Shown: positions 9,445-55,256 of the stretch, one piece after another
Layout: each line of letters starts with the position of its first letter
Position numbering within the stretch: position 1 is the first letter of the stretch
DNA from: Phycisphaerae bacterium
GTDB taxonomy: Bacteria > Planctomycetota > Phycisphaerae > UBA1845
Assembly (NCBI GenBank): GCA_963666835.2
Contig: CAXXGO010000006.1
Location: 1,760,001-1,824,000, forward strand
Direction: 5' to 3'
DNA length: 64,000 nt
Notes under the pieces: model-generated
Told to the model about the DNA's origin: nothing
Databases searched by the model: none
The model's input: the letters and a program-made list of their open reading frames with translations, nothing else
Position numbers and translations under genes: made by a program

Positions 9445-9761
9445 GATTACAACTCCTTACCTCAGTGTGTCCCTGGCGAACCGTCGGGCCTGATTCCGCC
9501 GACAATCCGCTGCCGCCCCTTCGCTGCCGGTTTCTGGCCGGCAATGCCGAAGCGACTGTCCCCGCAGTACGGCGTGGCTCCACGCGACGCCTCTATAGGG
9601 CTAAGCGACGGCCCCGCACGGCGCGCCTCACAGGAACGCAGGATTCGGCACATCGGCAACCCAAGGGCGACGCCGGATTCGGTGGGTTAAGTGCATCCAC
9701 AGTGAAACTCTGCCGAGTGCCACCGTAAGATAGTCGACGGGAAAGGTCCGAAGAAGATCGG

Positions 9762-37885: not shown

Positions 37886-38561
37886 TAGGATTACCTGCCC
37901 GAGTAGTCTCTTGTCGCTCGCCTAACGCCTGTTGCTCACTAATATCTACGGCCTCGGCGAAGTTGTTGAGCTCCGCATATGCGTAAAGGAGCACGCCAAG
38001 ACACCCAGCAAGAATCGCTGCACTCGTTCCAGACAGATTCCCGGGAGGGTATAGGGCTGAAGCCACTACGAGCGGAGCAACGAGGTTCCGCACGAGACGC
38101 CCCTGGGCTCTGCGTCGGTATATCTCGGCCTTGCTCTTGTCGCCGCTAACGGAACGCAATGCCGCCCGGTAAATCGCGTTCCATTCGGCCAGCCAACGGC
38201 ACCTGAACATCAGCCAGGATTTCGTTGAACGCTTAACGTCATCGTCAAACCCGGGGACACGAACGAAATCGTCCTGGAGGTTCTTGCGGGTCCGATGGGA
38301 GAGTAGGAACAACATGAACTGACGCGGTCCACGCTCGGATAATCCGTCGAGAATGAACCGACTCACTACTGCGGAGATAACACCGAGGCCGTAACAGCCG
38401 CACAAAAAAGCGAACGCAGATAGACTCTCGCTGCTAAGCTCTGGCTGTGAAGCCGGCGGCGGCCCAACCGGCGTCGCGGTGTGGTTGTAGAAGAGCCAAC
38501 CGAGAATCACGCCGGGTACAAGGTTCTCAATGTGAACGTTGACGTCTTTCCAGAACTCCAT
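37875..38561 (-). CDS. Hypothetical multi-TM membrane protein inside the hsd operon
   Basis: 3-4 hydrophobic segments; overlaps the hsdR start. Confidence 0.7.
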   Translation of the reverse strand: MEFWKDVNVHIENLVPGVILGWLFYNHTATPVGPPPASQPELSSESLSAFAFLCGCYGLGVISAVVSRFILDGLSERGPRQFMLFLLSHRTRKNLQDDFVRVPGFDDDVKRSTKSWLMFRCRWLAEWNAIYRAALRSVSGDKSKAEIYRRRAQGRLVRNLVAPLVVASALYPPGNLSGTSAAILAGCLGVLLYAYAELNNFAEAVDISEQQALGERQETTRAGNPNAD

Positions 38562-38570
38562 TGCACTCTC

Positions 38571-39986
38571 TCACATACGGGCTTCCATGTCGCGTACGTC
38601 AATCTTGCCGGTAACGGCAGCCGAAATCAGGGCGGAGCGGTACTCCTGAAGCCGCTCGATTGCCCTTGAGACTTGGCCCATCAAATCGTCGTGTTTTGCG
38701 GTTGCCGTTTGCAGGTGCTCGCAAATCTGTCCCTGTTCATCAAACGGTGGCAGGAATAGCTCGAACCCCTTCCACAGGTCCGTTCTGAGGCATTTTGTGC
38801 CATGGCCCGACTCTTCAACAAGAGCGAGAAACGCCGGGGCGATTCCTTGGAGGAGATAGGCCAAAAAATCCGCAGATGTCCCTGAGCGAACTGAAATCGC
38901 CTTCATATCTTGGTTGATTGTCACCGGTACGCTAGTCAGCCCGACCGGGAAACTGTGAGACAGAATCATCCCCCGCACAACGACGAGCACCGCCGGGGGG
39001 GCGATGAGGCGAATCGTCGTCTCGCTCACCGCTTCGTCCGTCACGTGGTCTGCCGAGTCGTCTATGATGCGGCGTTTCATGTCCTTGGGAGACACCCAAG
39101 GAATTGAGCCGTTCCAGTATCCAAGATTGTCTTTGCTCGGAGTTCCGCCACCCTGCATGGTCGTGATGTACCCGAGCTTCCGGAGGCACCAGTGCTCCGG
39201 TACGGGGCCGAGCCAGGCGATTCCGGAGTCCTTCATCGGGGCGTCGGGGTTGAGGCCCTTGGTGACGGCGTGGCTGATGAGGGCGGTGCGTTTCTCGGCG
39301 AGAAGTTCGATGAGCCGCTGCTTCTTGGCGATGAGTTCATCTATTCGAGCTGTCTCGGTGTCGAGGAATGTAACGATGGCTCGTTGTTCATCGGTTGAAG
39401 GAAATGGAAACCTGTACACGCGGAGCTGTTCGCCCGTAAGGTGAGGAATCGTATTCGGATTCCCTCGTGCGACGAACACACCAGTCGAAGCCGCATGCAA
39501 CAGTGCGTAGTAGAGATAGCGAGTCAGGTCACGGCTGGCACGCGGGCGAAGTCGGTGAAGAGCTTTCTGATACGCACATCGAGGGAGCTTATCATTCCAG
39601 ATTGCAGCCCGGCCAACCTCTCCTCCTTCACAAACGAGCAAGTCGCCGTGGCGAAGAATGAAACGAGCCTCTTCGCGTGGCTCAATGTCCATGTCCGGCA
39701 AGGCGGAAGTGTCGATGTAATCCCACTGAACGTCGGCATTACGTAGATACGGTGTGAGGTGCTCGCCCGTAATCCGCTTCGCGTCGAGCATTTTTCCGAG
39801 TTCGAGCCAGTACCGGGCGTACAGCGGTGCAATCGCCCATTCCAATGGCACCTCGCCCAGCCAGTCAGCCCCGGAATCGCGATAAACCGAATAGCGGGCA
39901 AAACTACGAGCCCCGGACTCAACCGCTTCGAGAAGCTGCCCAGAACCTGACAAGGCAGTGGACTCGACGGCACCAGAGTGAGTCAC
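38571..39986 (-). CDS. hsdS: Type I R-M specificity subunit
   Basis: SGADWLGEVP, EQRAIVTFLD, MKDSGIAWLGPVPEHW, EYRSALISAAVTGKIDV. Confidence 0.95.
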   Translation of the reverse strand: MTHSGAVESTALSGSGQLLEAVESGARSFARYSVYRDSGADWLGEVPLEWAIAPLYARYWLELGKMLDAKRITGEHLTPYLRNADVQWDYIDTSALPDMDIEPREEARFILRHGDLLVCEGGEVGRAAIWNDKLPRCAYQKALHRLRPRASRDLTRYLYYALLHAASTGVFVARGNPNTIPHLTGEQLRVYRFPFPSTDEQRAIVTFLDTETARIDELIAKKQRLIELLAEKRTALISHAVTKGLNPDAPMKDSGIAWLGPVPEHWCLRKLGYITTMQGGGTPSKDNLGYWNGSIPWVSPKDMKRRIIDDSADHVTDEAVSETTIRLIAPPAVLVVVRGMILSHSFPVGLTSVPVTINQDMKAISVRSGTSADFLAYLLQGIAPAFLALVEESGHGTKCLRTDLWKGFELFLPPFDEQGQICEHLQTATAKHDDLMGQVSRAIERLQEYRSALISAAVTGKIDVRDMEARM

Positions 39987-40531
39987 TTCGAAGCTCCTTT
40001 CGCTTTTCGTCCGGAGCTTGATGCTTGGGCTTTTTTCGTCGGTCTCTTCGCCTTCGCTTTGTATTCAGGAAGGACTTTCGCTTCTTCCGGCAGGACGTAG
40101 GCTCCCAAAAGCAGATGGTCAATCACCTTCATCGCTGCGATGGTCTGCTTTTCTGTCGGAGCCTTCATTTCGTGAGCCGCCTCGTTTCCGAGCAGGCGGA
40201 TTCCGTGGAGAATCTTCGCTCCGGAAGCAGTGAGCAGACTCTGCGTGACGAGATTGTCAATCTGCTCAAAGAGCGACTTGCCGGGCGTCTTTCGTTCTTT
40301 GCAGATAGCTTCGACAATCGCACGTACGCCGATACCAGCAAGCGTGAACAGCCGTTTCTGAATGGAAGCGATTGTCTCTCGATAAATCGCCTGCACGATA
40401 GCCGGTATGCTCCGCACATCGTCACCGAGGTAGAGGCCATCAACACGCACCTCGTCCGGCGGATAGCACTCAATCGACGTGGGAATGTACGGTTCACCGA
40501 AGTTGCTGGCCATCATTCTCCCCGGATTCAC
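39983..40531 (-). CDS. DUF4145 (HEPN-like) protein, probably 5'-truncated
   Basis: GVRAIVEAIC, IRLLGNEAAH motif. Confidence 0.8.
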   Translation of the reverse strand: MNPGRMMASNFGEPYIPTSIECYPPDEVRVDGLYLGDDVRSIPAIVQAIYRETIASIQKRLFTLAGIGVRAIVEAICKERKTPGKSLFEQIDNLVTQSLLTASGAKILHGIRLLGNEAAHEMKAPTEKQTIAAMKVIDHLLLGAYVLPEEAKVLPEYKAKAKRPTKKAQASSSGRKAKGASK

Positions 40532-41320: not shown

Positions 41321-42646
41321 ATGCGCAAAATCGATGCCCGTTTTGACATCATAACCAGCATGTTCCTCGGTGGGCCCGAACCTAATAACGTCCACAAACC
41401 GCACGAGCAAGTACCGAATGGCGTCCGCGGTCGAGTTGCCATCCGGCCCCCGTCGGTCAAGGGGGCGTTGCGGTTTTGGTGGCGAGCACTCCGTTGGAAG
41501 ACGTGGATTAAGGCCGCTGGCAACGACGAAGCCGAGGCGCTCACGCGTTTGGCGGAGGAAGAAGGCCGGGTCCTCGGCGCCGCGTACGATTCCTCCTCCA
41601 ACGCGGGCCAGGCAGCCGCTCAGATCATGGTTACGTCCAAGTGTAAGCCAATCAATGGGGGGGAACTGGGCAAGCGGATCAGTAGCGGACATGGTTACTT
41701 GTTGGGGCAAGGTCTCGCCAGACCTCCGAAGCAAGGTGTTACTGTCTGCACACGCGGAGCGATCGACGGTGCCTTCACGTTGCGTATTCTCCTTCACCGG
41801 AGTCTTGATGATTCCCAGGTTACTACCCTTCGGAATGCCGTACTCCTGCTTGGGCTGCTGGGTGGTCTCGGCGCCAGAGCGCGAAGAGGGTTCGGCTCGC
41901 TCGCGATTCAATCGTTGAGAGATGCTGACGGAGCAGCCGTCCCACTTCCTGAGAATCCGGCGGAGTATGCAGAGACGCTGAGGGGCTTGCTTCATGAGTT
42001 GCCCTCGGATGAGCCACCTTTTAGCGCATTCTCGCGTTACACTCGCGTGGACATCTCCGCAACGCATAAGAACGCTTGGTTCCTTCTCAACCATATCGGG
42101 GAGGCACAGATTGAATTTCGTAGCAACGGAAGGCGGACCGGGAAAGAAAGGCAGAATGCACTCAGGCAACGGGTAGCCCAGATGCCATTCAAAGGGGACC
42201 ACGACTCGATGCTCTCCCTCCTTCCTAGTCTCTCTCCTGGGCAGGGGCCGCCCCTGACGCATCCCCGGCGGGTCATCTTCGGGCTTCCGCACAATTATTT
42301 CTTCGGCAGCGTGAATCGGAAAGAAAGCTGGCGGGGACGGAAGGAGGCGAGGCGCCGCGCCACCGTACAGATCAGCCCTGTCAATGACAAGGACTTTGGA
42401 CGTCGGGCGTCCCCGTTGTTGATTCACATACACAGGTTTCCCACCGGTGACGCCGTCGCGGTGCAGACGGTGATGAGGGCTAGGTTCTTGCCCCCCGACG
42501 AGGGAATCAGAATCGCGGCCGGTGTCAACTCTAAGGATTTCCCTGTCGCGTGCGTACCGGCATGGGATGTCCTCGATGACTACTTGGACGGGTTCGGCTC
42601 ACGGACCACCGTTCTGCCTCTTGTGGAAGGTGGCGAAAATGGATGA
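41321..42646 (+). CDS. cmr1: Type III-B RAMP Cmr1
   Basis: IRPPSVKGALRFWWRA, LGGLGARARRGFGS, FGLPH, RRASPL. Confidence 0.93.
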   Translation: MRKIDARFDIITSMFLGGPEPNNVHKPHEQVPNGVRGRVAIRPPSVKGALRFWWRALRWKTWIKAAGNDEAEALTRLAEEEGRVLGAAYDSSSNAGQAAAQIMVTSKCKPINGGELGKRISSGHGYLLGQGLARPPKQGVTVCTRGAIDGAFTLRILLHRSLDDSQVTTLRNAVLLLGLLGGLGARARRGFGSLAIQSLRDADGAAVPLPENPAEYAETLRGLLHELPSDEPPFSAFSRYTRVDISATHKNAWFLLNHIGEAQIEFRSNGRRTGKERQNALRQRVAQMPFKGDHDSMLSLLPSLSPGQGPPLTHPRRVIFGLPHNYFFGSVNRKESWRGRKEARRRATVQISPVNDKDFGRRASPLLIHIHRFPTGDAVAVQTVMRARFLPPDEGIRIAAGVNSKDFPVACVPAWDVLDDYLDGFGSRTTVLPLVEGGENG

Positions 42647-44681
42647 GATGTACTTCCATTTCACAATCGGCCCGGTCCAGGGTTTTGTCGCCCAAGCGCG
42701 GCGGACGCGGGATTTCTGGGCTGGGTCCTTCTTGCTTTCCTGGCTCGCCGGTGTCGCGATGAACGCCGTGTTGAAGCAGTGCTCGGGGAACAAGACCGGG
42801 ATTGTCTTTCCGAGGCCGAGCAAGGAGTTGCTTGATTGGTGGAAAGGCCGGAAGAGCGATGGGCCTCGCCAGGGGACTATTCCCAATCGCTTTCTGGCGC
42901 GCGTCGACGGCGAGGCGTTCAATCCTCAGACCGTTGTCGACAGCGTTATCTTAGCTTGGCGCGGTTTGGCCGCGGCGGTCTGGGATGCGGATCTTGAGGG
43001 AAAGCCAGGGATCTGCTCAGAGCAACGCGTCATCTGGAACCGCCAGATCAACGGTTTCTGGGAGATCTCTTGGGCATTGACCAAAACGAAAAGCCAAGGC
43101 GACGCGCGCGCACTCGACCAGCGCAAGAATTGGAGGACACGTTACCCCACACCGGAGCCGGGAGTTAGCTGCATGGTGATTGATGGCTTTCAGGAGTTGT
43201 CCGGGGAAAGCAAGCCAGGTGCGAATGTGACAAACTTCTGGGAGCAGCAACGCAAGAGGTTACCAACCGACCTTCGCGAAGGAGAGTGCCTCTGTGCTAT
43301 TGCGTTCGTGAAACGGCGGTTCGTTCGGTGTTTTCATGGCCTCAAGATCGACATGCCCGGCAACTGGACTTTGACCGGATGGCGGGGCCTAACTACAAAC
43401 GTACCCTCGAACACGTTCATGGCCGCAACCCCTTGGCTCGCACGTGTTGTGCGTGCCGCGGCGGACGAACCGGCGCGCAGCGCAGAGGGGAAACAGCTTT
43501 CAGACTTCTACGGTACCGCCAAGGCCCTGGCCGACCACGGTGAACGGGCCACGAAGATCAAGCGGATCGAAGAGGCCGTTGGTGAAGCCCAACGAGCGTA
43601 TCCGGCCCACAAAGAGGAAATCGCGAGATTAGTTCAACTCGACGGATCGGTCTTCTTCGACAACTTGCTTGACAATGGTCGCCTGTTCCAGAAACACACG
43701 GAAGAACACGCTGCGATTGTCAGAGAGAAGCTCAAGAAACTGAAGGAGATCGCAGGAGGTGGTCCGGTGCCATTCTATGCTGTCCTGGCCATGGACGGCG
43801 ATAGTCTCGGCGCGAAGATGAGCAAGGAGGAGAACCAAGAGGGAATCGCCTCCGCGCTGAACGAGTTCACCCAAGCCGTAGCCGAGAAGCTCGTCACCGA
43901 GCATCACGGTTTTCTCATCTATGCTGGCGGCGACGATGTGTTGGCAGTGTTCGCCGCTGAGGACGCGCTTGCGGGCGCAGTTGCGATCCGGGAGGAGTAC
44001 CGGAGGTGCTTCAAGAAGCAGGCCGAGCCGGAGGTCCGCAAGTCCACTATCTCGGCGGCCGTGCATTATGTTGACATCCAGCGCCCGCTGACGCGTGTGC
44101 TCGGTGAGACTCACGATCTCCTCGAGAAGGTCGCGAAAGACCAGACCGGGCGAGATTCGCTGGCCGTTCGCCTGACCAGGCCCGGCGGCGTCTCTTTCGA
44201 GTGGTCCATGCCGTGGGAGATCGCACTGACACCAGAGAAGGACGACCAAGGTCGACCGGTTGAGAGATGCCTTGAGGTGGAGAGGTTGGCTGGAACGCTC
44301 AGACCAGATATGCACCCGGCATCCGACGGCGGTCGCGACAACGAAGAGGGCGGGCGTTTCAGCCATGGGTTCTTCTACAAGATCAGAAATCACATCGCAC
44401 TGCTCAATGGCGGAAACGGCGCAGTGCTGGGTGAGAAGGAAGCTAAGGCGATCCTCGCCACGGACTATCTGAACTCTGGCGTGCATGCACCTGGACGAAG
44501 CCTGACATTCGATGATGCTGTGGCGGCCATTGGACCCCTTTTTCAACAATGCCGCCGCATCACCCGGGATCCGGTCTCGGGCGAGATAGCCACGTTAGCC
44601 AAGGACGAGCTTGGCGAGGTGACCGACGATGCCGCCATGCTGGTTCGCTTTCTCGCGACTACTGTCTATGGAGGGGAGTAA
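42639..44681 (+). CDS. cmr2: Cas10/Cmr2 lacking the HD domain, cyclase motif intact
   Basis: Starts directly at FTIGPVQGFVAQARRTRDFWAGS; MDGDSLG; IYAGGDDVLA. Confidence 0.95.
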   Translation: MDEMYFHFTIGPVQGFVAQARRTRDFWAGSFLLSWLAGVAMNAVLKQCSGNKTGIVFPRPSKELLDWWKGRKSDGPRQGTIPNRFLARVDGEAFNPQTVVDSVILAWRGLAAAVWDADLEGKPGICSEQRVIWNRQINGFWEISWALTKTKSQGDARALDQRKNWRTRYPTPEPGVSCMVIDGFQELSGESKPGANVTNFWEQQRKRLPTDLREGECLCAIAFVKRRFVRCFHGLKIDMPGNWTLTGWRGLTTNVPSNTFMAATPWLARVVRAAADEPARSAEGKQLSDFYGTAKALADHGERATKIKRIEEAVGEAQRAYPAHKEEIARLVQLDGSVFFDNLLDNGRLFQKHTEEHAAIVREKLKKLKEIAGGGPVPFYAVLAMDGDSLGAKMSKEENQEGIASALNEFTQAVAEKLVTEHHGFLIYAGGDDVLAVFAAEDALAGAVAIREEYRRCFKKQAEPEVRKSTISAAVHYVDIQRPLTRVLGETHDLLEKVAKDQTGRDSLAVRLTRPGGVSFEWSMPWEIALTPEKDDQGRPVERCLEVERLAGTLRPDMHPASDGGRDNEEGGRFSHGFFYKIRNHIALLNGGNGAVLGEKEAKAILATDYLNSGVHAPGRSLTFDDAVAAIGPLFQQCRRITRDPVSGEIATLAKDELGEVTDDAAMLVRFLATTVYGGE

Positions 44682-45895
44682 TGACCGATAGCCCCACTCG
44701 CACGTGGCGTTTTGAGCAGGTGGACAGCTGGTTCTTCCGCGAAGCCCGCCCCTACGGGACCATTGGCGGAGTCGAACTCTCGAGTGTGTTCCCGCCACCG
44801 GCACGTACGGTGGCCGGCGCGATTCGGACGATGATCGGGGAGCACCGCGGAGTTGACTGGAAGGAGTTCGCCAAAGAGGGGGATCTTAAGTGGTCGCCTT
44901 TACGGGAACAGATTGGGACGGGACGCGGCGACCAGGAGTTTGGTGCGTTTCGCATGAAGGGTCCGTACTTGGAGTATAAGCGTAGGCGGCTCTTCCCGGC
45001 ACCTTCGCTGCTCCTCGCCGGGCGCAAGGCGAAACAACGCACGCTGACACGACTGCGCCCGGGCGAGGCGTGCGTGTGCGACCTCTCGCAGAATGACAAT
45101 GCCGGAGACCAGTTGCCAGTGCGGCTGCCAACTATGACAGATCCCTTGCCGGGGGCCGAACCGCTGTCTGACTGGCTAACACCGGAAGGCTTCGCGGATG
45201 TGCTGTCAGGCAACCTGCCAGCCTGGGCGGACTGCGTACCGCCCGCCGAGTTGTTCGCGGAGGAACCGCGACTCGGGATCGCTCGCGAGTGCAAACAGCG
45301 CACCACTGTCAAGGGGCTCCTCTACCAAACACGCCACGTACGGCTTAACCCTGACGTCAACGTCCGCGCGGACATTTCGGGTATTGCCGACAGCTTCACG
45401 CCTCCGGCAGGCGCCGTCCGTTTGGGCGGGGATGGCCGCTTCTCCCACGTTACAATAGAAGGTGGTAACAGCGAGCATATTGCTCCGCCGGTTCCTTCCG
45501 ACCCCAACGGCAGACAGTTACTGCTCATCCTTACAACCTGTGCCGACTTCGGCGAAACCGGCTGGCTGCCGAGCGGCTTCGCGCCGCACGCCATTGAGCG
45601 CGGCACCGTGAAAATACGTTGCTGGAAGGGTACGATCGCGAATGTCCCGCTTATTATTGAATGCGCATGCATCGGCAAGACTGTCCGTGAGGGAGGCTGG
45701 GATGCTGCACTTAGGCAACCTCGGGAGGTTCGGTCCTTGGTCCCGGCCGGAAGCGTCTACTTCTGCCGCCTCGACGACGGTGCACCGCAAATCGCAGACG
45801 CAATGAAGGCACTCCACGGTGCTACGGTGGAGGGGCAGGGGACCGAGATCGGCTACGGCGAACTAGCCGTCGGCCTGTGGAACGAAGCTTGTTGA
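44681..45895 (+). CDS. cmr3: Cmr3
   Basis: DSWFFREARP, SVFPPP, LGGDGR, GGWD, VPAGSVY, GYG. Confidence 0.93.
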   Translation: MTDSPTRTWRFEQVDSWFFREARPYGTIGGVELSSVFPPPARTVAGAIRTMIGEHRGVDWKEFAKEGDLKWSPLREQIGTGRGDQEFGAFRMKGPYLEYKRRRLFPAPSLLLAGRKAKQRTLTRLRPGEACVCDLSQNDNAGDQLPVRLPTMTDPLPGAEPLSDWLTPEGFADVLSGNLPAWADCVPPAELFAEEPRLGIARECKQRTTVKGLLYQTRHVRLNPDVNVRADISGIADSFTPPAGAVRLGGDGRFSHVTIEGGNSEHIAPPVPSDPNGRQLLLILTTCADFGETGWLPSGFAPHAIERGTVKIRCWKGTIANVPLIIECACIGKTVREGGWDAALRQPREVRSLVPAGSVYFCRLDDGAPQIADAMKALHGATVEGQGTEIGYGELAVGLWNEAC

Positions 45896-45909
45896 TCAGG
45901 AGGTCAGAT

Positions 45910-46863
45910 ATGAGACAGGCCAATGCAATGCTCGGCCTACTTACGCACACTTCTATGCACGCGGGAACCGGGCAGGCAACCGGTGTGATCGACCTGCCCG
46001 TCCAGCGAGAGGGGCATACGGGATGGCCGTGCGTGTTCGGTTCAGCCGTGAAGGGCGCTTTGCGAACCCGGGCAGTCGACCGCCACGGAAGCGCCGGCTG
46101 GATCTACGACGTCTTCGGACCACCTCCTCCCAGGGACAACACCGCCGCATTCCCTCAACCGGGAGACTACGGTGGGGCGCTTGCGGTCGGCGACGCAAAG
46201 CTGCTGCTGCTGCCGATTCGTTCCCTGAGCACCCACTTCAAGTGGGTCACCTGTCCGGCACTCCTCGGCAGGTGGCAACGCGATATAGAACGAAATCGTC
46301 TGAGTGGCAAGTTCGGCGGCAACTGGGATGTGCCCGATGTCGCTGACGACAGAGCATACGTGGCTACCTCTCCGCCTGACCGTAAGCTGTTTCTTGAGGA
46401 GTTTCGTTTCGACGCAGAGGTTCCAGAAAGCAAGCTCGCAGGCGTAATTGCGTCCCTGACAACACTCATAGACGGAAAGCCGGATCAGGGGCAGCCGGGT
46501 CCAACCCGCAAGGCGCTGGAGAAGCAGCTCGCGATCATCAGCGATGACCGTTTCAGCACCCTCTGCCGTTTCGCAGCGCCGGTCGATCCGCACGTCCAAC
46601 TTTACGACAAGAAGACGGTAGCGCAGGGGCCCTGGTACGAGGAGACGCTCCCGCCCGATACGCTGCTCTACGTCGAGTTATTGGGGCATCCGTCACGCAA
46701 GGACCCCGCATCGATGAGTGCGTCGGACATCATGGACCATGCCACAACCAGTCTCTTTGACGACCATGACTCGTACCTGCAACTTGGCGGCAACGAGACG
46801 GTAGGCATGGGCTGGTGTGGCGTCGCGGTGCACAAGGCGAGCGCCCAGCCAACCAGTAAGTAA
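45910..46863 (+). CDS. cmr4: Cmr4 with catalytic Asp retained
   Basis: HAGTG...IDLPVQRE, WYEETLP, QLGGNETVGMG. Confidence 0.96.
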   Translation: MRQANAMLGLLTHTSMHAGTGQATGVIDLPVQREGHTGWPCVFGSAVKGALRTRAVDRHGSAGWIYDVFGPPPPRDNTAAFPQPGDYGGALAVGDAKLLLLPIRSLSTHFKWVTCPALLGRWQRDIERNRLSGKFGGNWDVPDVADDRAYVATSPPDRKLFLEEFRFDAEVPESKLAGVIASLTTLIDGKPDQGQPGPTRKALEKQLAIISDDRFSTLCRFAAPVDPHVQLYDKKTVAQGPWYEETLPPDTLLYVELLGHPSRKDPASMSASDIMDHATTSLFDDHDSYLQLGGNETVGMGWCGVAVHKASAQPTSK

Positions 46864-46887
46864 CGCACAACCAACGGGAGATCGGTC

Positions 46888-47331
46888 ATGCAAACCATTC
46901 AGCAGGAGCGGGCGGGGCACGCACTCAAGGGAGTCAATGATGGCCTTGAGGGGCTGAGTGAAAAGGAGAAACGTGAATACCGAGCCGCCGCCCGTGGGCT
47001 CGGTCCCATGGTGCTGTCGAACGGGCTCGGCCAGGCCGCCGCCTTCTATTGCAGCCGAGCGGACAAGACGCACGTCAAGCTCTACGCTCTCCTCTCCGAA
47101 TGGCTGACGGAATCGCAGATGCCGTACCGCGAGAAGCCGAACCTGCTCGAAGGCATCACCGAGGGGAATATGGACCAATACCTGACCGCTCAAGCCGAGG
47201 CGCTTTTGTACCTGCACTGGGTCAGCATGTTTGCAACCGCGCTGATCCGGACGGAATCGAATCCCGGCCGTGCTGCGGGAGACTCAGACGAATCCCCCGC
47301 GCCGGACGCAGAGGAAGGCAAGGTCGAATAA
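46888..47331 (+). CDS. cmr5: Cmr5 (Cas11)
   Basis: QERAGHA, MVLSNGLGQAAAF; operon position. Confidence 0.92.
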   Translation: MQTIQQERAGHALKGVNDGLEGLSEKEKREYRAAARGLGPMVLSNGLGQAAAFYCSRADKTHVKLYALLSEWLTESQMPYREKPNLLEGITEGNMDQYLTAQAEALLYLHWVSMFATALIRTESNPGRAAGDSDESPAPDAEEGKVE

Positions 47332-48164
47332 TGGCAACGCTCCCCCTCTACAAGAACCACAACAGCCCTCCTCGGCTGGATCGCAACCAGAAGCCTCACT
47401 GCGGCCTCTGGTGGGAGAGATTCTGCACTCTGTACCGGTGCGTGGGCGGGAAGTGGATCGCAGCCGAAGCGCAGAATGACAGAGAAAGCTCACCGAAGCT
47501 TGATTGGATCAACGAATTCGCAAGGGACGCTTGTGGCGACCCTGCGATGCTCGCTCTCGCCGAAAGCCGCATGAGGAACCTGTGCACTACCCTACGCGGC
47601 AGCACGCGGACCTTTGCCACCGACTGGCACTTTGTCACTGGCCTCGGCATCGACCACGCCGTCGAAAACGGCTTCGGCTGGCACCCCACGTTGGGTGTGC
47701 CCTATCTGCCGGGTTGCGCCGTGAAGGGCATGCTCCGTGCGTGGTTAACCCACTGGGACGAGGAGGATAAGAGCAAGCTCGACCGGTGGCTCGGCACCTC
47801 CAAAGAGGCAGGCAAGTTCGTTTTCTTCGATGCCCTCCCCCCGAAGCCGGTGAAGCTCACCGCCGATGTGATGACGCCGCACATGGGCAATTGGTACAGC
47901 GAAGGCGCGTCAATCAGCGCTGTCAGCCATGAAGAGTGCAAGAAGATCCCGGGGGATTGGCACAACCCGGTCCCGGTTCCGTTTCTGGCTGTCCAAGCCG
48001 GCCAGCAGTTCGTGTTCGCCGTCGCACCGAAAAGAAGCGGCGACAGCGCAGAGAGTGACCGGAAGGAAGTGGCCGAAGTACTTGATCAGATTGAGCAGGC
48101 TTTGACGTGGATCGGCGCCGGCGCCAAGACCGCAGTCGGATATGGTCGTTTCGAGCGAGTTTAG
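47331..48164 (+). CDS. cmr6: Cmr6
   Basis: ENGFGWHPTLGVPYLPG, DVMTPH, PVPVPFL, GAGAKTAVGYG. Confidence 0.95.
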   Translation: MATLPLYKNHNSPPRLDRNQKPHCGLWWERFCTLYRCVGGKWIAAEAQNDRESSPKLDWINEFARDACGDPAMLALAESRMRNLCTTLRGSTRTFATDWHFVTGLGIDHAVENGFGWHPTLGVPYLPGCAVKGMLRAWLTHWDEEDKSKLDRWLGTSKEAGKFVFFDALPPKPVKLTADVMTPHMGNWYSEGASISAVSHEECKKIPGDWHNPVPVPFLAVQAGQQFVFAVAPKRSGDSAESDRKEVAEVLDQIEQALTWIGAGAKTAVGYGRFERV

Positions 48165-48208
48165 ACGGCGGACGAACACCTGAGTACTACTTTCGCATCC
48201 GAGATGAC

Positions 48209-50971
48209 ATGCCTGTTTCAGCTCCCAGCTTCTATCGACTCCAGGTCACCTTACGCATGACCGCCCGAGCCTCGCTCCCGGCCCATCATGCCGGTGTACT
48301 CTACTCGCTACTGGCCGCGGCCAACGGACGGGCCGTCGATATGGAGCCCGCTCTGCCGGACGGGCTGATGCTCGACGCCCCGGAACAGTGCCGCATGAGC
48401 CTCTCGCCGGGAGAGCGTTATAACTTCGGCTTCACCCTGCTATCCGACAATGACGATCGCGCGCAAGCGTGCATTGACCAGATCCGTGACGGGCTTGCAC
48501 GACACGGCAAAGAGCGTGCCTACGAGCCCCACGTCTTCGGCGGGAACTTCGCCGTTGCCGAACTTCGCGACCTCGTGGCAAACGCACCCATCGAAGCCGG
48601 GCAGGTCCCCGAAGCCATCCCGCTTGACCACCTGGAGGATGAGTGCCGTCGCCTCGAGTCGGAACCCAGGCTCAGTCTGAGTTTCACCTCGCCGTTACGC
48701 ATGCCGCGCCCGACCCGCTTCCGCGAAGAGGGACACGGGTTCTTCGACGGCCACCAGTTCTATACCGGGCTGTTTCTCCTTCGCCTGTGCCGCCGCCTTC
48801 GTAGGCTCGGGTTCCTCGACATCCCGGAATTCGCTCCAGACGACACGAATCACCTGGCTCACCTTGCGGCGAATCGGCTTGTCTGGCTCGACTTTTCCTA
48901 TGGACCACACGGGCAGCGGAAGTCCCTCGGCGGTGCACTCGGTTTGCTCACGGTTGAGCGCGTAGACCCCCGCGCGATTCGCCCCCTGGTACTCGGACAA
49001 TACGTCCGATGCGGCCAGAACACGCGATTCGGACTCGGTGCCTATCGCATCGCGCAGCTCGGCCCGTCGTCGTTTCCCGCCCGACGTGCCGTTTCGCTCT
49101 TGCGGCTCGCCCTGCGGCAGGATCACCTCGACACCGCCGCGCACCGCTATGAGCTCCCCAGCGGTTTACTCCAGACCCTCGCCGGACGCGTGGAGACCGG
49201 CTCCTATCAGCCCGAACCATCCCACAGTGTCACAATCCCCAAGCCGGACGGCGGCGAGCGCACGTTACGGATCGCGTCACCTGCTGACCGAGCACTGCAG
49301 CGGGTGTTGTTTGAACGCCTCGCGCCCGCGGTCGACGCCTTCTTCGAGGATTCTTCACTTGCGTACCGGCGAGGTCTCGGCAGACGCCGCGCCGCTCATC
49401 GCATCCGGCACGCCTTCCGGGAGGGCTACGGACACGCAATAAAGGCCGATTTCTTCCACTTCTTCGATTCGATTGACCATGCCCTCCTTCGAGCTCGCCT
49501 CAGCGCCTATATTGCAGATCACGAGACTGTCGACCTTATCATGCGCTGGGTAGGCGCCGACGCTCCCGAGCTTGGCCGCGGAATCCCCACCGGCTCGCCA
49601 CTCTCGCCTTTGCTTGCCAACCTGTTCCTTGACGAGTTCGATGAAGAGATCGAGCGGCACGGCGGACGCCTTGTTCGCTATGCAGATGATTTCCTGGTGC
49701 TCTACCGCACCCGCGCCGAAGCCGACCGAGTTTACGAAACGGCCGTCCAAGCCGCCCATGCCTTGGCCTTGGTACTGAACCGGAACAAAACCACGCGTCT
49801 CGATCTTACTGAAGGCTTCGAGTTCCTGGGATTCAGTTTCGAACGCACGGATCGTTGGGTCGCCAAGCCCGGGGAAGGGCCCAGGCACCTGCAGGATCTG
49901 GGTTGGCACGAGTCGCACAACAAGCCCAAGCCGGCCCCCAACCGGCTCGCCTTTGCCGGGGAGGACGCCACCATTGAGCCGTCGAACCGTGCATGGGCCG
50001 TGTTCGGTCCGGGAGCCGTAAAGCTGCGAATCAGCAGTGGCCGGCTGTTGTGCGCATACCGGGATGGTTCAACGTCCGCCGCTCACCTCGACCACGTGCG
50101 GAGTGTACTCGTTCTCGGCCGCCCGACTATGTCCTCCGGAGTACTCGAAGCCCTCCGTCACCACAGTGTACCAATGCTCGTCGCCGACGATTTCGGTCGC
50201 TCCCAAAGCACATTCACCCATAACGAGATTGTCGAGCATCCGCAGGCCGTCGCGGCGCAGGTGAACATGCTCCACGACAAACCGCACCGGCTCGCACTCG
50301 CCAAGCGACTCGTCTGGGCTAAGATCTCCAACTACGCCACTTTGGCCGCGTCCCTGCGCTCCAAGACGGATGGAACGTCCGAGACCCTCCGAGCGTATGA
50401 AACGCGCTGCCGCGAGGCCGCCGATATACAGGAACTCCTCGGCTTCGAGGGCGCTGCGGCCGCCGCCTGGTATCGCGTCTTCCCGCGCCTGTTGCCGGAT
50501 TGGTGCCGGTTTTCGCGCCGCGTGGCCCCCGACGCCTCCGACCCCGCCAATATCCTGCTCAACATTGCCCAGTCGGCATTGCACAACCAGTGTATTGCTG
50601 CGGCGCGCCTGGCCGGGCTTTCGCCGGTTGTCGGGGTCCTCCACGATCTGCGGCAAGGTCACGCGGCCCTGGCCTCCGACCTCCAGGAGCCGTTCCGCCA
50701 CCTTATGGACCGGGTGGTCATAGAGGCTATGCCGCTGCTGAAGCCCAAGGACTTCCGGAGAGTCGAAGGCAGCGAGTATCAGCTTACGATCGCTCCCAAG
50801 GCCATCCGCCTGTTCCTCGCGCACCTTTACGAGACGTTCCATCTGAATTGCCGATCGCGCGGCACGCTCGATACGTGCACCTATCTTGCTCATCTGTCGA
50901 TGAACGCCCGCTCCTTTCGCCGGCACCTGCTTGATCGCAAGGTCTTTCCCCACTACTTTCGTCACCCATGA
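48209..50971 (+). CDS. cas1: Cas6-reverse transcriptase-Cas1 fusion
   Basis: Cas6 G-loop GQNTRFGLGAY; RT motifs IPKPDGGER, ADFFHFFDSI, GIPTGSPLSPLLAN, YADD; Cas1 motifs GFEG, GVLH, SDLQEPFR. Confidence 0.93.
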   Translation: MPVSAPSFYRLQVTLRMTARASLPAHHAGVLYSLLAAANGRAVDMEPALPDGLMLDAPEQCRMSLSPGERYNFGFTLLSDNDDRAQACIDQIRDGLARHGKERAYEPHVFGGNFAVAELRDLVANAPIEAGQVPEAIPLDHLEDECRRLESEPRLSLSFTSPLRMPRPTRFREEGHGFFDGHQFYTGLFLLRLCRRLRRLGFLDIPEFAPDDTNHLAHLAANRLVWLDFSYGPHGQRKSLGGALGLLTVERVDPRAIRPLVLGQYVRCGQNTRFGLGAYRIAQLGPSSFPARRAVSLLRLALRQDHLDTAAHRYELPSGLLQTLAGRVETGSYQPEPSHSVTIPKPDGGERTLRIASPADRALQRVLFERLAPAVDAFFEDSSLAYRRGLGRRRAAHRIRHAFREGYGHAIKADFFHFFDSIDHALLRARLSAYIADHETVDLIMRWVGADAPELGRGIPTGSPLSPLLANLFLDEFDEEIERHGGRLVRYADDFLVLYRTRAEADRVYETAVQAAHALALVLNRNKTTRLDLTEGFEFLGFSFERTDRWVAKPGEGPRHLQDLGWHESHNKPKPAPNRLAFAGEDATIEPSNRAWAVFGPGAVKLRISSGRLLCAYRDGSTSAAHLDHVRSVLVLGRPTMSSGVLEALRHHSVPMLVADDFGRSQSTFTHNEIVEHPQAVAAQVNMLHDKPHRLALAKRLVWAKISNYATLAASLRSKTDGTSETLRAYETRCREAADIQELLGFEGAAAAAWYRVFPRLLPDWCRFSRRVAPDASDPANILLNIAQSALHNQCIAAARLAGLSPVVGVLHDLRQGHAALASDLQEPFRHLMDRVVIEAMPLLKPKDFRRVEGSEYQLTIAPKAIRLFLAHLYETFHLNCRSRGTLDTCTYLAHLSMNARSFRRHLLDRKVFPHYFRHP

Positions 50972-51240
50972 GCCAGTATGTAGCCGCCTATGACGTCTCC
51001 GATGACCAGCGCCGGCGTGCGGTTGCGGCCGTTTTGTCATCCTACGGCCAACGTATTCAGCAGTCGGTCTTCGAGATCTGGCTTGAGCCGCCGGAACTTC
51101 CCGAGTTACGCCGCAGCATCGGACCGTTGTTGGCCGTGACGGATGCGTTCGACCTCGTCCCGATCGACAACCGGGGCACACGCCCGCGCTATCGATGGCA
51201 GCGCCCCGTCGAAACGCAGAAGGCCGTTCTGCTCTGTTGA
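50968..51240 (+). CDS. cas2: Cas2
   Basis: YVAAYDVSDD, YGQRIQQSVFE; ATGA overlap with cas1. Confidence 0.95.
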   Translation: MSQYVAAYDVSDDQRRRAVAAVLSSYGQRIQQSVFEIWLEPPELPELRRSIGPLLAVTDAFDLVPIDNRGTRPRYRWQRPVETQKAVLLC

Positions 51241-51561
51241 CACTCGGAAGCCGGCACACATCTGGACAATATGCTCGATCTGTGATAAGATAATAACAGA
51301 GTTGGGCGGCTGCGCCTTGCTGGGCGCGGTCCAACACGTGCATGCCCCCGGCCGGCCTGGGCCGGAACTTTCGCGCAGGGAGGGGCATCCGGCCGAAGCG
51401 TTGACGCCGGCCCCGAAATGCGTGATTGCGAACCCGCCGTCGCGGTGGGAGGTGGAGGTTGTTCTTTCTCATCGGAATAGAACCTATGATCGCGGCTTCG
51501 CTAACTCCTTTTGACCACACCGATTACGTCGCTTCGGCCCATCGGCGCAAGGAACGAGGGG
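51241..51561 (+). promoter_or_regulatory. CRISPR leader
   Basis: Non-coding stretch between cas2 and repeat 1; the degenerate repeat is at the far end of the array. Confidence 0.7.
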
Positions 51562-53441
51562 GTGAAATGAGCCGTCCTTAAGGACCGCAATCAAAACCAT
51601 TCGCAATTCCTTTCACCAGAAGCCAACCTTGTGAAATGAGCCGTCCTTAAGGACCGCAATCAAAACGCTACCTCCTTAAGTCAGTTCTCAGTTCTCAGTC
51701 CTCGTGAAATGAGCCGTCCTTAAGGACCGCAATCAAAACGTCCAGCTACAATCGTCGGCTGTTGCATCATCCGTGAAATGAGCCGTCCTTAAGGACCGCA
51801 ATCAAAACTTGAGGGTGTTGAGAGTGGTCATGATCGGTCTCCTGTGAAATGAGCCGTCCTTAAGGACCGCAATCAAAACCCAGTAAAAAACATTATTAAC
51901 ATGACTAACACCCGGTGAAATGAGCCGTCCTTAAGGACCGCAATCAAAACTCGAATTTTTTTAATCTCCAGTTTCATTATATCTCTCCGTGAAATGAGCC
52001 GTCCTTAAGGACCGCAATCAAAACGCTACCTCCTTAAGTCAGTTCTCAGTTCTCAGTCCTCGTGAAATGAGCCGTCCTTAAGGACCGCAATCAAAACGTC
52101 CAGCTACAATCGTCGGCTGTTGCATCATCCGTGAAATGAGCCGTCCTTAAGGACCGCAATCAAAACTTGAGGGTGTTGAGAGTGGTCATGATCGGTCTCC
52201 TGTGAAATGAGCCGTCCTTAAGGACCGCAATCAAAACCCAGTAAAAAACATTATTAACATGACTAACACCCGGTGAAATGAGCCGTCCTTAAGGACCGCA
52301 ATCAAAACTCAACCGTTCTTTTCGCGTATCCATGACTTTCGTGAAATGAGCCGTCCTTAAGGACCGCAATCAAAACCGTTCGTCGCCGTCTTGGTGATCT
52401 TGCCGTCGCGTGAAATGAGCCGTCCTTAAGGACCGCAATCAAAACCGTTGAAATAAATCTGTGCTAGTTCCACTGACAGTGAAATGAGCCGTCCTTAAGG
52501 ACCGCAATCAAAACTGATACGAACTCCTTAGAAAGGGAACCTTGGCCAAGGTGAAATGAGCCGTCCTTAAGGACCGCAATCAAAACTATAAGCGTTTCAT
52601 CGCCTATACTCCTACCGGGTGAAATGAGCCGTCCTTAAGGACCGCAATCAAAACAGACAGCTTCCGCTTCCGCTTCCGATCGCGCGACTCAGTGAAATGA
52701 GCCGTCCTTAAGGACCGCAATCAAAACGACGACCATTTCTGGTCTCCTTTCTTTCTGGTCTCTTGTGAAATGAGCCGTCCTTAAGGACCGCAATCAAAAC
52801 TGTTTCGCTGGGGGCAGGCGAGCGTAGGGACGGAACAGTGAAATGAGCCGTCCTTAAGGACCGCAATCAAAACCCTTAACGCTACCATAACCAGATCTCC
52901 ATATCGGTGAAATGAGCCGTCCTTAAGGACCGCAATCAAAACTCAGCCATCTCAGCCTCCCTAATTTTTTTTGATATAACCTTGGTGAAATGAGCCGTCC
53001 TTAAGGACCGCAATCAAAACTCCCGAACACCCCCAGAAACCCAACCACCGCCGCGTGAAATGAGCCGTCCTTAAGGACCGCAATCAAAACTTGCCTGTAA
53101 CTAGACTAAACATGATTGTTCCTTGGTGAAATGAGCCGTCCTTAAGGACCGCAATCAAAACGAAAATTTCGTCGCGTGTCATGATATTGTTCGGTGAAAT
53201 GAGCCGTCCTTAAGGACCGCAATCAAAACAGCCGCTCCTGAACTCATTCTGATACCTCACGAAGGTGAAATGAGCCGTCCTTAAGGACCGCAATCAAAAC
53301 CACCGCCACCAGCAGCACCGCAATCATGTTCTTCTGTGAAATGAGCCGTCCTTAAGGACCGCAATCAAAACGTACTATCACCCTACAAGGCGTGCTACCT
53401 CCCGGGTGAAATGAGCCGTCCTTAAGGACCGCAATCAGAAT
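51562..53441 (+). CRISPR. CRISPR array: 27 repeats of 36 bp (GTGAAATGAGCCGTCCTTAAGGACCGCAATCAAAAC), 26 spacers of 32-42 nt, 22 unique
   Basis: Counted by hand; GTCC-TTAA-GGAC hairpin; last repeat ends CAGAAT. Confidence 0.99.
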
Positions 53442-53562
53442 GTGATGATGTCAATGCACTCGGAGGATATTGCGGAATGAGATGAGCGGCCCCCAAGAGC
53501 TTGCCAAGATTGGAGCCCCTGCGAGTGTGAGGAACTCGCCGAATCGACGGGCCTGAAGAGGC

Positions 53563-54861
53563 TTAGTGTTCAGCGGGTGGAGGTACGGTTCGGGCGTTGT
53601 AGATGATCGGCTTGCAGTCCCCCTCGGTCTGCACGTACTGGAATTGGTAGTGATCATTGAGCGTGACTACTACACCCACCGCACTCGTGACCTTCTGCCC
53701 ACCGGTCACGTCGATGACGGTGTGCTCCGGAGGGATACTCTTATGGCCGCGGTCCTTTCTGCGGAGGTCAGGTAGGATCTCGCCGGTGAGCACGTCGGAC
53801 AATTCATCGAAGCTCTCGAAATCCAGGCCCTCTTTTAGTATAAACTCGACGCTGGGAAGGTAGTGCTCGAGAAGCCTCTGGCAATCTCCGCCCCGCCCGT
53901 CCGACCCATACGTGGTGCGTCCGTTCTTGTCCGTCTTCTTGCGCGAGGTCAACAGGTAGACGTACCGGAGCGGCTGCCCCTTGTACGGAGCGATCGCACG
54001 AAGGAGCTGCTGCCAGTTCCATTTGATGTACTTCTCGTCTTCGCCCCAGCGGCAGAGCGGGTCCTTGCTGCCAGGTGTTGATCGAAGAACGTCCTGTGCC
54101 GGATCGTCACCGAGCAGTACGGTCGGTTCTGACGCGCGCTGCGTGCTAACCCAGATCTCTTTCTTGTTCTCGCCTTGGTTGAAGTCGACGGTGAAGGCGT
54201 TGCTCGACACGTGCAGGATCAGCGCCTCTACTTTCCCGCCTTGTTTCACGTATTCGTCCGCGTCGACGGGCTCTGACAGTGTTCGATGCACCGTTAGATT
54301 TCGGTGCAGCCGGTGGAGGATAATTACCCCGCCGACCACTACCGTCAGGGCGACGCCGTACGCCCAGTTCGGCAGCAAGTGGTGTGCGTGTAACAGGTGG
54401 TGCATGACGATGGCAAAGGCATGTCCGGACAAAAGGGCCAGGGCGGCCATGAGCACCTCAAGAACGTGCGCTCTTCGTTTGCTTGCCTCCAACTGTTGTT
54501 GCGACCCGCTCCCTTTCTCCGACGGCTGGGGCGTGAACCGCAGTGAGTGCAGCTTATCCGCGGAGTATACGAAGATCCCCAAAGTGCCGACCGCAAACAG
54601 GATGCCAAGGGCTAGAGCCCAGCCGGGTCGGCCGGAAACCGTGTTCAGCACCTCCACCATGAGGTACGCCATAATATGACCGGCCGCGAGCACAAAGACG
54701 AGTAATACGATGAAACCGATGAGGCTCTTTCGGTTTACGCGACGCCCTTCCTTAGCCGTTGCCACGGTACTGCGCTTCTCCCCCTCCAACGGGGTGCCAT
54801 CGCTATCGCTCTCGGTTGCGCCAACTGGTCGAACCGGCGACTCTCCGTCATCATTGGACAT
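53563..54861 (-). CDS. Membrane CARF effector (4 TM + C-terminal CARF; Cam-like)
   Basis: Four hydrophobic helices; LILHVS and VIDVTGGQK CARF motifs; next to the array and csx3. Confidence 0.8.
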   Translation of the reverse strand: MSNDDGESPVRPVGATESDSDGTPLEGEKRSTVATAKEGRRVNRKSLIGFIVLLVFVLAAGHIMAYLMVEVLNTVSGRPGWALALGILFAVGTLGIFVYSADKLHSLRFTPQPSEKGSGSQQQLEASKRRAHVLEVLMAALALLSGHAFAIVMHHLLHAHHLLPNWAYGVALTVVVGGVIILHRLHRNLTVHRTLSEPVDADEYVKQGGKVEALILHVSSNAFTVDFNQGENKKEIWVSTQRASEPTVLLGDDPAQDVLRSTPGSKDPLCRWGEDEKYIKWNWQQLLRAIAPYKGQPLRYVYLLTSRKKTDKNGRTTYGSDGRGGDCQRLLEHYLPSVEFILKEGLDFESFDELSDVLTGEILPDLRRKDRGHKSIPPEHTVIDVTGGQKVTSAVGVVVTLNDHYQFQYVQTEGDCKPIIYNARTVPPPAEH

Positions 54862-54917
54862 GCGTATTCTCCCTGAAGGGACTTCAGACGAGACGAGCTT
54901 AACCAAATGCAATCAGA

Positions 54918-55256
54918 TCAGTGAGCATCTGTCAAGTTTGCGATCCGGACTAATTCACCAACTTGCGGCGCTTCGGACTTGTGCCTTGCGACGACGATCG
55001 CGCCATTCTCACGCGGGTCATACAGCGCGAGCCAGGCAAACGCGTGCGCCAAGTGTACTAAATAAGCATAGAGCCATACAGGGCCACGGCCGGAGAGTAC
55101 AAGCCCGAGGTGCCGATATGCATCGAGCTCGACCGGCAGCTTGATCTCGGCCAACCGCCTGTAGTCGAGCAACCCATCAGGCGTGGTCGCGTGGAACTCT
55201 GCATAGCTGAGAGCGTTTCCCGTAGTGATCTTCCAACCGAGCATCTCCGACGTCAT
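54918..55256 (-). CDS. csx3: Csx3/Crn3 ring nuclease
   Basis: GLVLSGRGPVWLYAYLVH...YDPR...AIVVARH. Confidence 0.9.
   Translation of the reverse strand: MTSEMLGWKITTGNALSYAEFHATTPDGLLDYRRLAEIKLPVELDAYRHLGLVLSGRGPVWLYAYLVHLAHAFAWLALYDPRENGAIVVARHKSEAPQVGELVRIANLTDAH

Follow-up and report, generated by a model that had tools for sequence, protein, structure and literature searches.

How does a CRISPR system directed at RNA gain useful spacers, and how can it protect the cell without cutting DNA? Both questions are raised by a locus of a Phycisphaerae bacterium lying in a window of 64,000 nucleotides (the whole stretch of DNA that was analysed). A sequence-only reading had listed Cas10, Cmr proteins, a Cas6-RT-Cas1 fusion, a membrane effector and a ring nuclease. 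All these parts were found, together with a CRISPR array:

41321..42646, + strand: cmr1 (TIGR01894, over cut-off; ATG preceded by a ribosome-binding site)
42639..44681, + strand: cas10/cmr2, 680 aa, HD-less, with MDGD and GGDD and a putative ATP-type acceptor, Asn81
44681..45895, + strand: cmr3 (PF09700, E 1.7e-58)
45910..46863, + strand: cmr4 (TIGR02580), presumed catalytic Asp position retained in alignment with P. furiosus Cmr4
46888..47331, + strand: cmr5 (PF09701, TIGR01881)
47331..48164, + strand: cmr6 (TIGR01898)
48209..50971, + strand: Cas6-RT-Cas1 of 920 aa, in a clade that is mostly planctomycete (7kft, E 1.4e-73)
50968..51240, + strand: cas2 (PF09827, TIGR01573)
51241..51561, + strand: putative array leader (a degenerate repeat lies at the opposite end, 53406)
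51562..53441, + strand: CRISPR array with 26 spacers, 22 of them unique, between 27 repeats of 36 nt
52728..52764, + strand: spacer 17, with 23 nt in common with spacer 22 in the array of L013, a locus of a relative
53563..54861, - strand: membrane effector of 432 aa, with a hairpin of two helices in duplicate (4 TM) and a CARF domain (PADLOC CARF8/TM+CARF)
54918..55256, - strand: Crn3/Csx3 ring nuclease (TIGR02579, 67.2 against a cut-off of 55.4; aligned to AF1864)

The III-B locus and its genome

Profile (HMM) typing of cas10/cmr2 with cmr1, cmr3, cmr4, cmr5 and cmr6 gave a type III-B CRISPR-Cas system; cmr3 scores 97.1 bits against a TIGR cut-off of 100.4 and is well over the Pfam cut-off. 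The Asp said to be kept in Cmr4 aligns with that of GVVDQP in P. furiosus, which we take to be the catalytic residue. Cas10 does lack an HD domain: its ATG lies at 42639 and, because the Cmr2_N profile opens within the first ten residues, there is no space for such a domain at the N-terminus. The Palm2 cyclase motif GGDD (430) is intact, as is MDGD (385), and this is the single Cas10 match genome-wide. Likewise, no Csx1/Csm6 RNase was found in the window, nor in the 92%-complete genome. Two further claims, that there is no DNase arm and that the only Cas6 is the one fused to RT-Cas1, hold for the III-B locus but not genome-wide, because the genome also encodes Cas3, in complete operons of types I-G and I-C, as well as Csb2 (Cas5/6).

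The fusion is encoded by a single frame of 920 aa and carries both YADD and the E/H/D motifs of Cas1. Its Cas6 part stays below the Pfam cut-off (21.9 against 25 bits); nevertheless, the G-rich loop region aligns with the Thiomicrospira Cas6-RT-Cas1 (7kft). It shares with the latter (PDB 7kft; PMC8102632, in the part available) and with Marinomonas mediterranea III-B (accessible text of PMC11014452) the three-domain organization, YADD, the Cas1 catalytic motifs and the downstream cas2 and array. It differs from both in belonging to a separate, mostly planctomycete clade and in its partners, a 4-TM CARF protein and Crn3. No account of Cas6-RT-Cas1 in Planctomycetes was found in the literature covered, mainly open-access main texts.

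The layout of the locus is in itself ordinary, HD-less Cas10 and a membrane CARF protein with a ring nuclease both being common; among 1113 type III loci, an HD domain occurs in only 39% (PMC11229360). Of greater interest than the gene combination are the content of the spacers and the effector with its four helices; the array, its bias and the four helices had no place in the sequence-only reading.

Signalling and the membrane effector

In Cas10, Asn81 aligns with the Asn of LPNKA in P. furiosus Cmr2, presumably residue 300 once the chain offset is allowed for. Crn3 carries the conserved His and the Asp-Pro-Arg motif in alignment with AF1864, and we take these to be catalytic. The Asp of SAM-AMP-type enzymes (B. 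fragilis D70, at the position of P. furiosus N300) is absent, Asn81 standing in its place; as judged by alignment, the acceptor site is ATP-type rather than SAM-type (PMC10600005, in the part available). Two other III-B systems without HD, from Vibrio metoecus (cA3) and from Bacteroides fragilis (SAM-AMP, CorA), likewise combine an intact cyclase with one ancillary effector (same source), whereas the window Cas10 keeps the acceptor Asn instead of the SAM-type Asp, and the CARF effector and Crn3 indicate cA4. Indeed, Crn3 is cA4-specific and is not found alongside non-cA4 effectors, and 81% of loci with a Cam1-type effector have a ring nuclease next to it (PMC12409355).

The membrane effector has the CARF fold and the membrane part that had been claimed, but its hydrophobic helices number four rather than one or two. 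Its hydrophobic segments lie at 47, 80, 133 and 167, the predicted model has four helices (TM region pLDDT 50-70), and the CARF fold gives Z scores of 11.9, 11.3 and 10.2 to Cami1, Can2 and Cam1. The protein belongs to a large CARF-TM family of over 2,000 clusters, and its sequence matched no PDB chain at E<=10. Like Cam1 of Nitrosococcus halophilus (available part of PMC10808066; PDB 8t64-8t66), it joins an N-terminal membrane part to a CARF domain at the C-terminus, and it has no nuclease or other enzyme domain. However, Cam1 has a single N-terminal helix per chain and forms a tetrameric four-helix pore lined by D17 (same source), while the window effector has roughly double the length and carries four helices that stem from the duplication of a hairpin, with 18% structural identity. 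It falls under the loose rule of PMC11229360, a CARF domain with any TM segment, but is not Cam1 proper; no description of "CARF8" was found in the literature covered, again mainly open-access main texts. The four-helix form offers a handle on pore stoichiometry, in a family whose sequence has no match among solved structures.

The chain first proposed, from RNA sensing through cyclic oligoadenylate to a membrane CARF protein switched off by Crn3, remains the best reading, in agreement with the CARF fold, the ATP-type acceptor and the cA4-specific Crn3; we infer cA4 as the signal and a pore as the output. The locus probably defends the cell via a membrane protein, a known design.

Gene starts in the spacers

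By a strict rule, devised after the window spacers had been seen, 9 of the 22 unique spacers are antisense to SD+ATG, against 1.6 in dinucleotide shuffles (p=0.0005), and none has SD+ATG on the opposite (sense) strand; a looser start-zone rule finds 17 of 22 antisense to starts. The type I arrays of the same genome, a clean negative control, give 0/48 on either strand (Fisher p 7.6e-6). Even sampling of the gene-dense phage T7 would yield 7% overall and 10% in its densest stretch, below the window value (binomial p 1.5e-4 at 10%). After 34 ATGs, counted over the window, L013 and a further locus, L176, 117 codons contain no stop in frame, while the two other frames have 2 and 7, a weak signal. 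The spacers centre on the start codon; the 3' end lies 3 to 27 nt from the ATG, so variable a distance that no fixed ribosome-footprint edge is seen. The targets are lower in GC than those of unbiased arrays (0.47 against 0.57). They are not less folded than their own shuffles (MFE -4.1 against -3.9), and the predicted target of spacer 17 folds as a GAAA hairpin covering the AUG.

The window spacers gave no protospacer in their own genome or in 100 family genomes and no credible one in viral_contigs; phages and plasmids returned weak partial matches only (E>=0.5), 60 relatives a single low-complexity match of 29 nt, and genome_contigs only the array of L013 itself. Since none of the window spacers yielded a protospacer, the window starts are read from the motif and not from mapped genes. 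On this basis, the predicted crRNAs of the window lie antisense to the regions where translation of foreign genes begins, the starts being recognised by motif. The arrays of L013 and L176 gave nothing besides one self match when compared with phages, relatives and the order. The array repeat has no match in metagenome_contigs or in Rfam, and the one sigma70-like site of the leader (51263-51291) is not over chance. The listing of sequencing runs shows no RNA holder, and two contig sets join over the array; this resembles repeat collapse and is not counted as evidence.

Origin of the bias

The explanation that we favour, and hold to be rather probable as a whole, is that of an intact, RNA-only type III-B immune locus in which the bias most likely arises mainly at capture. 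Cas6 would mature the crRNAs, and Cmr would bind invader mRNA over the ribosome-binding site and start codon. Cas10 would then produce cA4, which would bind the CARF dimer of the four-helix effector, depolarise the membrane and arrest growth, until Cmr4 cleavage of the target, together with Crn3, ended the signal. Capture would set the bias because transcripts have a 5' region that is A-rich and weakly folded, and this region, either as RNA or as DNA just downstream of a promoter, would be taken up far more often than the rest. Selection would set the strand: antisense spacers against invaders would be retained, antisense self spacers lost, and harmless sense copies would sometimes persist.

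A gene-start bias per se is already published for a type III-A system. In Streptococcus thermophilus, type III spacers likewise cluster near gene beginnings, an enrichment that comes from adaptation and is independent of interference (PMC8860593; PMC13575424, in the parts available). That system, however, has no RT, and its promoter-driven peak falls past the start codon, 10-50 bp downstream, and is stronger when translation is blocked (same sources), whereas in the natural array of the window the spacers that straddle SD+ATG amount to 41% by the strict and 77% by the loose rule. Among RT-Cas1 enzymes, that of F. saccharivorans shows a skew to AT-rich transcript ends (cited in PMC6821258, in the part available) and that of V. 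vulnificus no gene-end bias (PMC6821258).

Capture is argued for above all by L013, where the unchanged strict rule finds 18/47 spacers and where the non-targeting (sense) strand is also enriched (5/47 against 1.17, p=0.004). One sense spacer is an exact self match to the start of a secreted-type ORF of 108 aa, SD and ATG included. The bias is placed at capture because this non-targeting spacer exactly copies a host gene start, an argument that comes from L013 and not from the window (sense-strand starts 0/22) and from one mapped spacer in a binned genome.

Selection at interference would give the same picture if spacers were captured anywhere and only those whose crRNAs bind a ribosome-loading site for long enough to elicit cyclic oligoadenylate, blocking translation as well, persisted. 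All nine window matches are antisense, immunity without an HD domain rests entirely on RNA binding, and dCas13d acts mostly within a tract of about 70 nt around the ribosome-binding site (10.1101/2023.09.18.558157). We nevertheless think this unlikely: the self-derived sense spacer of L013 cannot reflect selection for immunity, most type III arrays examined show no start bias, and predicted translation strength barely mattered for active Cas13a (10.1101/2021.11.23.469693).

Still less probable is a capture rule peculiar to the RT enzyme, by which RT-Cas1 would take up RNA fragments protected by initiating ribosomes. The three strongest loci, the window, L013 and L176 (7/12), all carry the Cas6-RT-Cas1 fusion, its clade pooled gives 42/320 spacers against 12.7 expected, the spacers centre on the start codon, and RNase-made fragments have been proposed as RT-Cas1 substrates (accessible part of PMC11014452). 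Against it stand the lack of a fixed edge and the loci that miss p<0.001: 15 of 18 in the clade, all 27 with other RTs and all 6 of the further type III loci that have an RT. The fusion enzyme alone fails to explain the bias, since only 3 of the 18 loci that bear it are biased and these do not form a clade, in a quick tree made without L202, for which no ORF was extracted. Moreover, RT-less regions show about twofold enrichment (24/205 against 13.0), and a III-D locus in a genome without RT match (G530) has 6/11 in one array against 2.3 expected, a weak excess.

Very improbable, finally, is a target-driven excess, in which these hosts would meet an invader exposing transcripts that consist largely of short ORFs or of start cassettes in many copies, and starts would be over-sampled with no capture rule of their own. 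In its favour, the bias is patchy and follows neither RT tree nor subtype (III-B in the window, III-D in L013 and L176), one target is common to two hosts, and two L013 spacers overlap a single start. Against it, the densest stretch of T7 gives only 10%, shares of 38-58% would require one gene per 50 nt or so, and the sole mapped source is a host gene.

A bolder version, which we regard as doubtful, is that some planctomycete Cas6-RT-Cas1 enzymes sample translation-initiation regions of RNA almost exclusively, from initiating ribosomes or exposed leader RNA, that the crRNAs trigger the signal and at the same time keep ribosomes from loading, and that the signal opens a pore formed by a dimer of the hairpin-duplicated four-helix CARF protein. 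The array would then be a catalogue of invader gene starts, and the four-helix dimer the equivalent of a tetramer of the common two-helix form. The available part of PMC11014452, on Cas6-RT-Cas1 systems, describes no natural array centred on start codons, and nothing linking RT-Cas1 to SD, start codon or ribosome-binding site was found in the (mainly open-access) main texts. These observations bear on how RNA-targeting CRISPR systems gain useful spacers, and a start-biased RT-Cas1 would double as a translation-start recorder. The natural arrays with 40-75% of guides on start codons (window, L013, L176), set beside sister loci without bias (L179, L202, L241), make a ready comparison of capture with selection and of RT-dependent with RT-independent uptake.

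Layout and catalytic state of the locus

The sequence-only reading listed the parts of the locus correctly, and the system they make up is of a known kind. Two things can be added: an array strongly centred on gene starts, which has good controls and a single clue at the level of capture, and a membrane CARF effector with a duplicated hairpin. On present evidence, there is a new principle in neither. The features are the following:

within 41321-55256, + strand: cmr1-cas10-cmr3-cmr4-cmr5-cmr6-[cas6-RT-cas1]-cas2, then the leader
51562-53441: CRISPR array of 27 repeats, downstream of the leader
53563-54861, - strand: TM-CARF gene, beyond the array and convergent to the cmr/cas operon
54918-55256, - strand: csx3, likewise beyond the array and convergent to the operon

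The best named relatives of the Cas6-RT-Cas1 fusion protein are from Planctomycetota. The host genome (6.0 Mb, 92% complete) matches Cas10 once and Cas1 three times; the two Cas1 genes outside the fusion sit with Cas3 in complete operons of types I-G and I-C. A defence island lies directly upstream of the locus (34877-40531, - strand): besides a type I restriction-modification set, with HsdS identified by Pfam and HsdR by eye, it holds a DUF4145 gene and a hydrophobic ORF of 228 aa that has no match. A protein of >2000 aa (57832-63987, - strand), by eye of secreted type and with Cys-rich repeats and an alpha/beta-hydrolase-like GxSxG stretch, has no relation to the CRISPR locus.

Cas10 had been described as carrying GGDD without an HD domain, and indeed the Cmr2_N region opens the 680-aa protein, in which MDGD and GGDD are both intact. 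In an alignment, its Asn81 falls on the Asn that P. furiosus Cmr2 has in LPNKA and that, with an assumed chain offset, would be residue 300. SAM-AMP synthases are reported to have an Asp at the position of P. furiosus N300 (PMC10600005). Cmr4 keeps its Asp, as claimed, the RT its YADD, Cas1 its E/H/D motifs and Crn3 its His and DPR motif. The absence of Csx1/Csm6 holds across the 92%-complete host genome (n=1), where Csx1/Csm6, Csx1_HEPN, Card1 and NE0113 gave no match while controls were positive. With the catalytic motifs kept and these effectors absent from the searches, the description stands, but the design is common, since an HD domain is reported in just 39% of 1113 type III loci (PMC11229360) and a ring nuclease beside the Cam1-type effector in 81% of loci (PMC12409355).

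Spacers centred on start codons

The last repeat of the array is degenerate, which places the leader on the cas2 side, so that spacers are read as crRNA on the + strand. Of 26 spacers 22 are unique, spacers 2-5 being repeated as 7-10. Close to the leader, a 300-nt block of four repeat-spacer units occurs twice without a difference (51631-51930 and 51989-52288), either by recombination or as an assembly artefact.

By a strict rule (AGGA, GGAG or GAGG, then ATG 3-13 nt on, in the spacer reverse complement) 9/22 spacers qualify against 1.6 expected (2000 dinucleotide shuffles, max 6, p=0.0005), and by a looser one (6-nt SD, or early in-frame ATG) 17/22 against 5.7, both rules having been formulated after inspection of these spacers. 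The opposite strand gives 0/22 by the strict rule. ATG alone (14/22, p=0.02) and a 4-nt SD alone (12/22, p=0.26) are weak; the start signal lies in the SD-ATG spacing. As controls, the strict rule was met by 0/48 spacers of the same genome's type I arrays on both strands, by 2.8% of random host 35-mers and by 7.0% of T7 sense 35-mers (10.1% in the densest stretch).

Unchanged, the strict rule picks out 18/47 spacers in L013, a III-D locus of a Pirellulaceae MAG, and 7/12 in L176, a III-D locus of genome G495, both with the same fusion.

Spacers by the strict rule in pooled loci (observed; expected; loci at p<0.001). Each array was given to the nearest locus, and its orientation came from a crude score of the repeat ends, wrong for the second array of genome G530; the planctomycete groups come from 36 of 63 Cas10 matches, 16 without array; two regions with type I-G-like repeats and locus L006 are left out.
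Fusion clade, window included: 42/320; 12.7; 3/18
Other RT loci: 29/447; 21.3; 0/27
Planctomycete Cas10 regions with RT: 4/76; 2.8; 0/6
Planctomycete Cas10 regions, no RT in region: 24/205; 13.0; 0/12

The biased loci showed no grouping on a quick tree, and the first array of G530, a genome with a III-D locus and no RT match, gave 6/11 against 2.3 expected. Unbiased RT loci, ungrouped biased loci and this RT-less array together show that the RT is not sufficient for the bias and probably not required. In the III-D locus of G530, CARF-Lon (CalpL-like) and Cas10 matches share a single open frame (L302:3-2684, - strand), a possible effector-Cas10 fusion.

Capture, selection and a shared target

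One sense-strand spacer of L013 (31 nt, extended by 4 nt from the end of the repeat) is identical to positions 68005-68039 of G778:C121, in its host genome. The ORF that starts there encodes 108 aa, is rich in His and opens like a signal peptide, and the match takes in both its SD and its ATG. Since a spacer of mRNA sense confers no immunity, its position reflects capture, in a single case from a binned genome. Counting this one, starts are found on the non-targeting strand in 5/47 L013 spacers against 1.17 expected (p=0.004). S. thermophilus III-A spacers are reported to be most frequent at 10-50 bp downstream of a start codon, independently of interference (PMC8860593, PMC13575424). Selection at interference stays a rival source of the bias, because dCas13d is described as working best around the RBS (10.1101/2023.09.18.558157). 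Natural type III spacers are given as 65% coding-strand (PMC8482600). Among RT-Cas1 systems, gene-end bias is reported for F. saccharivorans and not for V. vulnificus (PMC6821258), and the accessible part of a type VI RT report shows no such bias (PMC11662929). Our literature search found no description of natural arrays straddling the SD. Spacer ends, 3-27 nt past the A of ATG, have no ribosome-footprint edge. In L013:13462-16655, spacers 1 and 39 overlap one SD and ATG but differ in their ends, so this start was captured on two separate occasions.

Window spacer 17 and L013 spacer 22 have 23 nt in common; the repeats of the two loci differ and their fusion proteins are 37% identical. Nine cross-locus pairs among 1048 spacers share a 14-mer, the remaining 8 being short or low-complexity by eye. 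The target of spacer 17 is predicted to form a hairpin with a GAAA cap that covers the AUG (z -3.0). Searches of viral and genome contigs gave no source for it; the shared target suggests an element reaching both hosts.

The membrane CARF effector

The effector matches the PADLOC models TM+CARF (E 4.6e-18), CARF8 and CARF_2M. phmmer against PDB gave no chain at E<=10 and Foldseek weak CARF matches alone (best E 3.7e-3); in a wide structural search, residues ~210-425 map to CARF domains (Cami1 Z 11.9, Can2 11.3, Cam1 10.2). The family profile matched 2216 cluster representatives. A hydropathy scan of 158 members (15 from a homologue search, 143 new from the profile search) found two N-terminal hydrophobic segments in 88, one in 39, four in 14, three in 6 and none in 11. 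The window effector has four; its two hairpins resemble one another more than shuffled sequences do (p=0.002), and such an alignment is significant in 3/13 four-helix proteins tested. Scored by a profile of the two-helix form, the extra hairpin lies above all five shuffles in 13/13, the window effector being the weakest (7.9 vs 3.8 bits for shuffles).

Cam1 is described with one helix (PMC10808066), whereas the window effector has four segments; it is thus not Cam1 proper, and we infer that it acts in a Cam1-like mode. Cap1 and Chp1 are reported with other architectures. A dimer would, at a guess, supply eight helices. In L172, a locus of genome G600, a Cas6-RT-Cas1 and its array lie between a CARF-Lon-Csx16 fusion (9091-11160) and a TM-CARF from the window effector's family (16156-17244). 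The longest contig is 18790 bases for both the four-helix effector homologue P0003 and the Cas6-RT-Cas1 homologue P0025, a hint that this pairing may be a repeated one.
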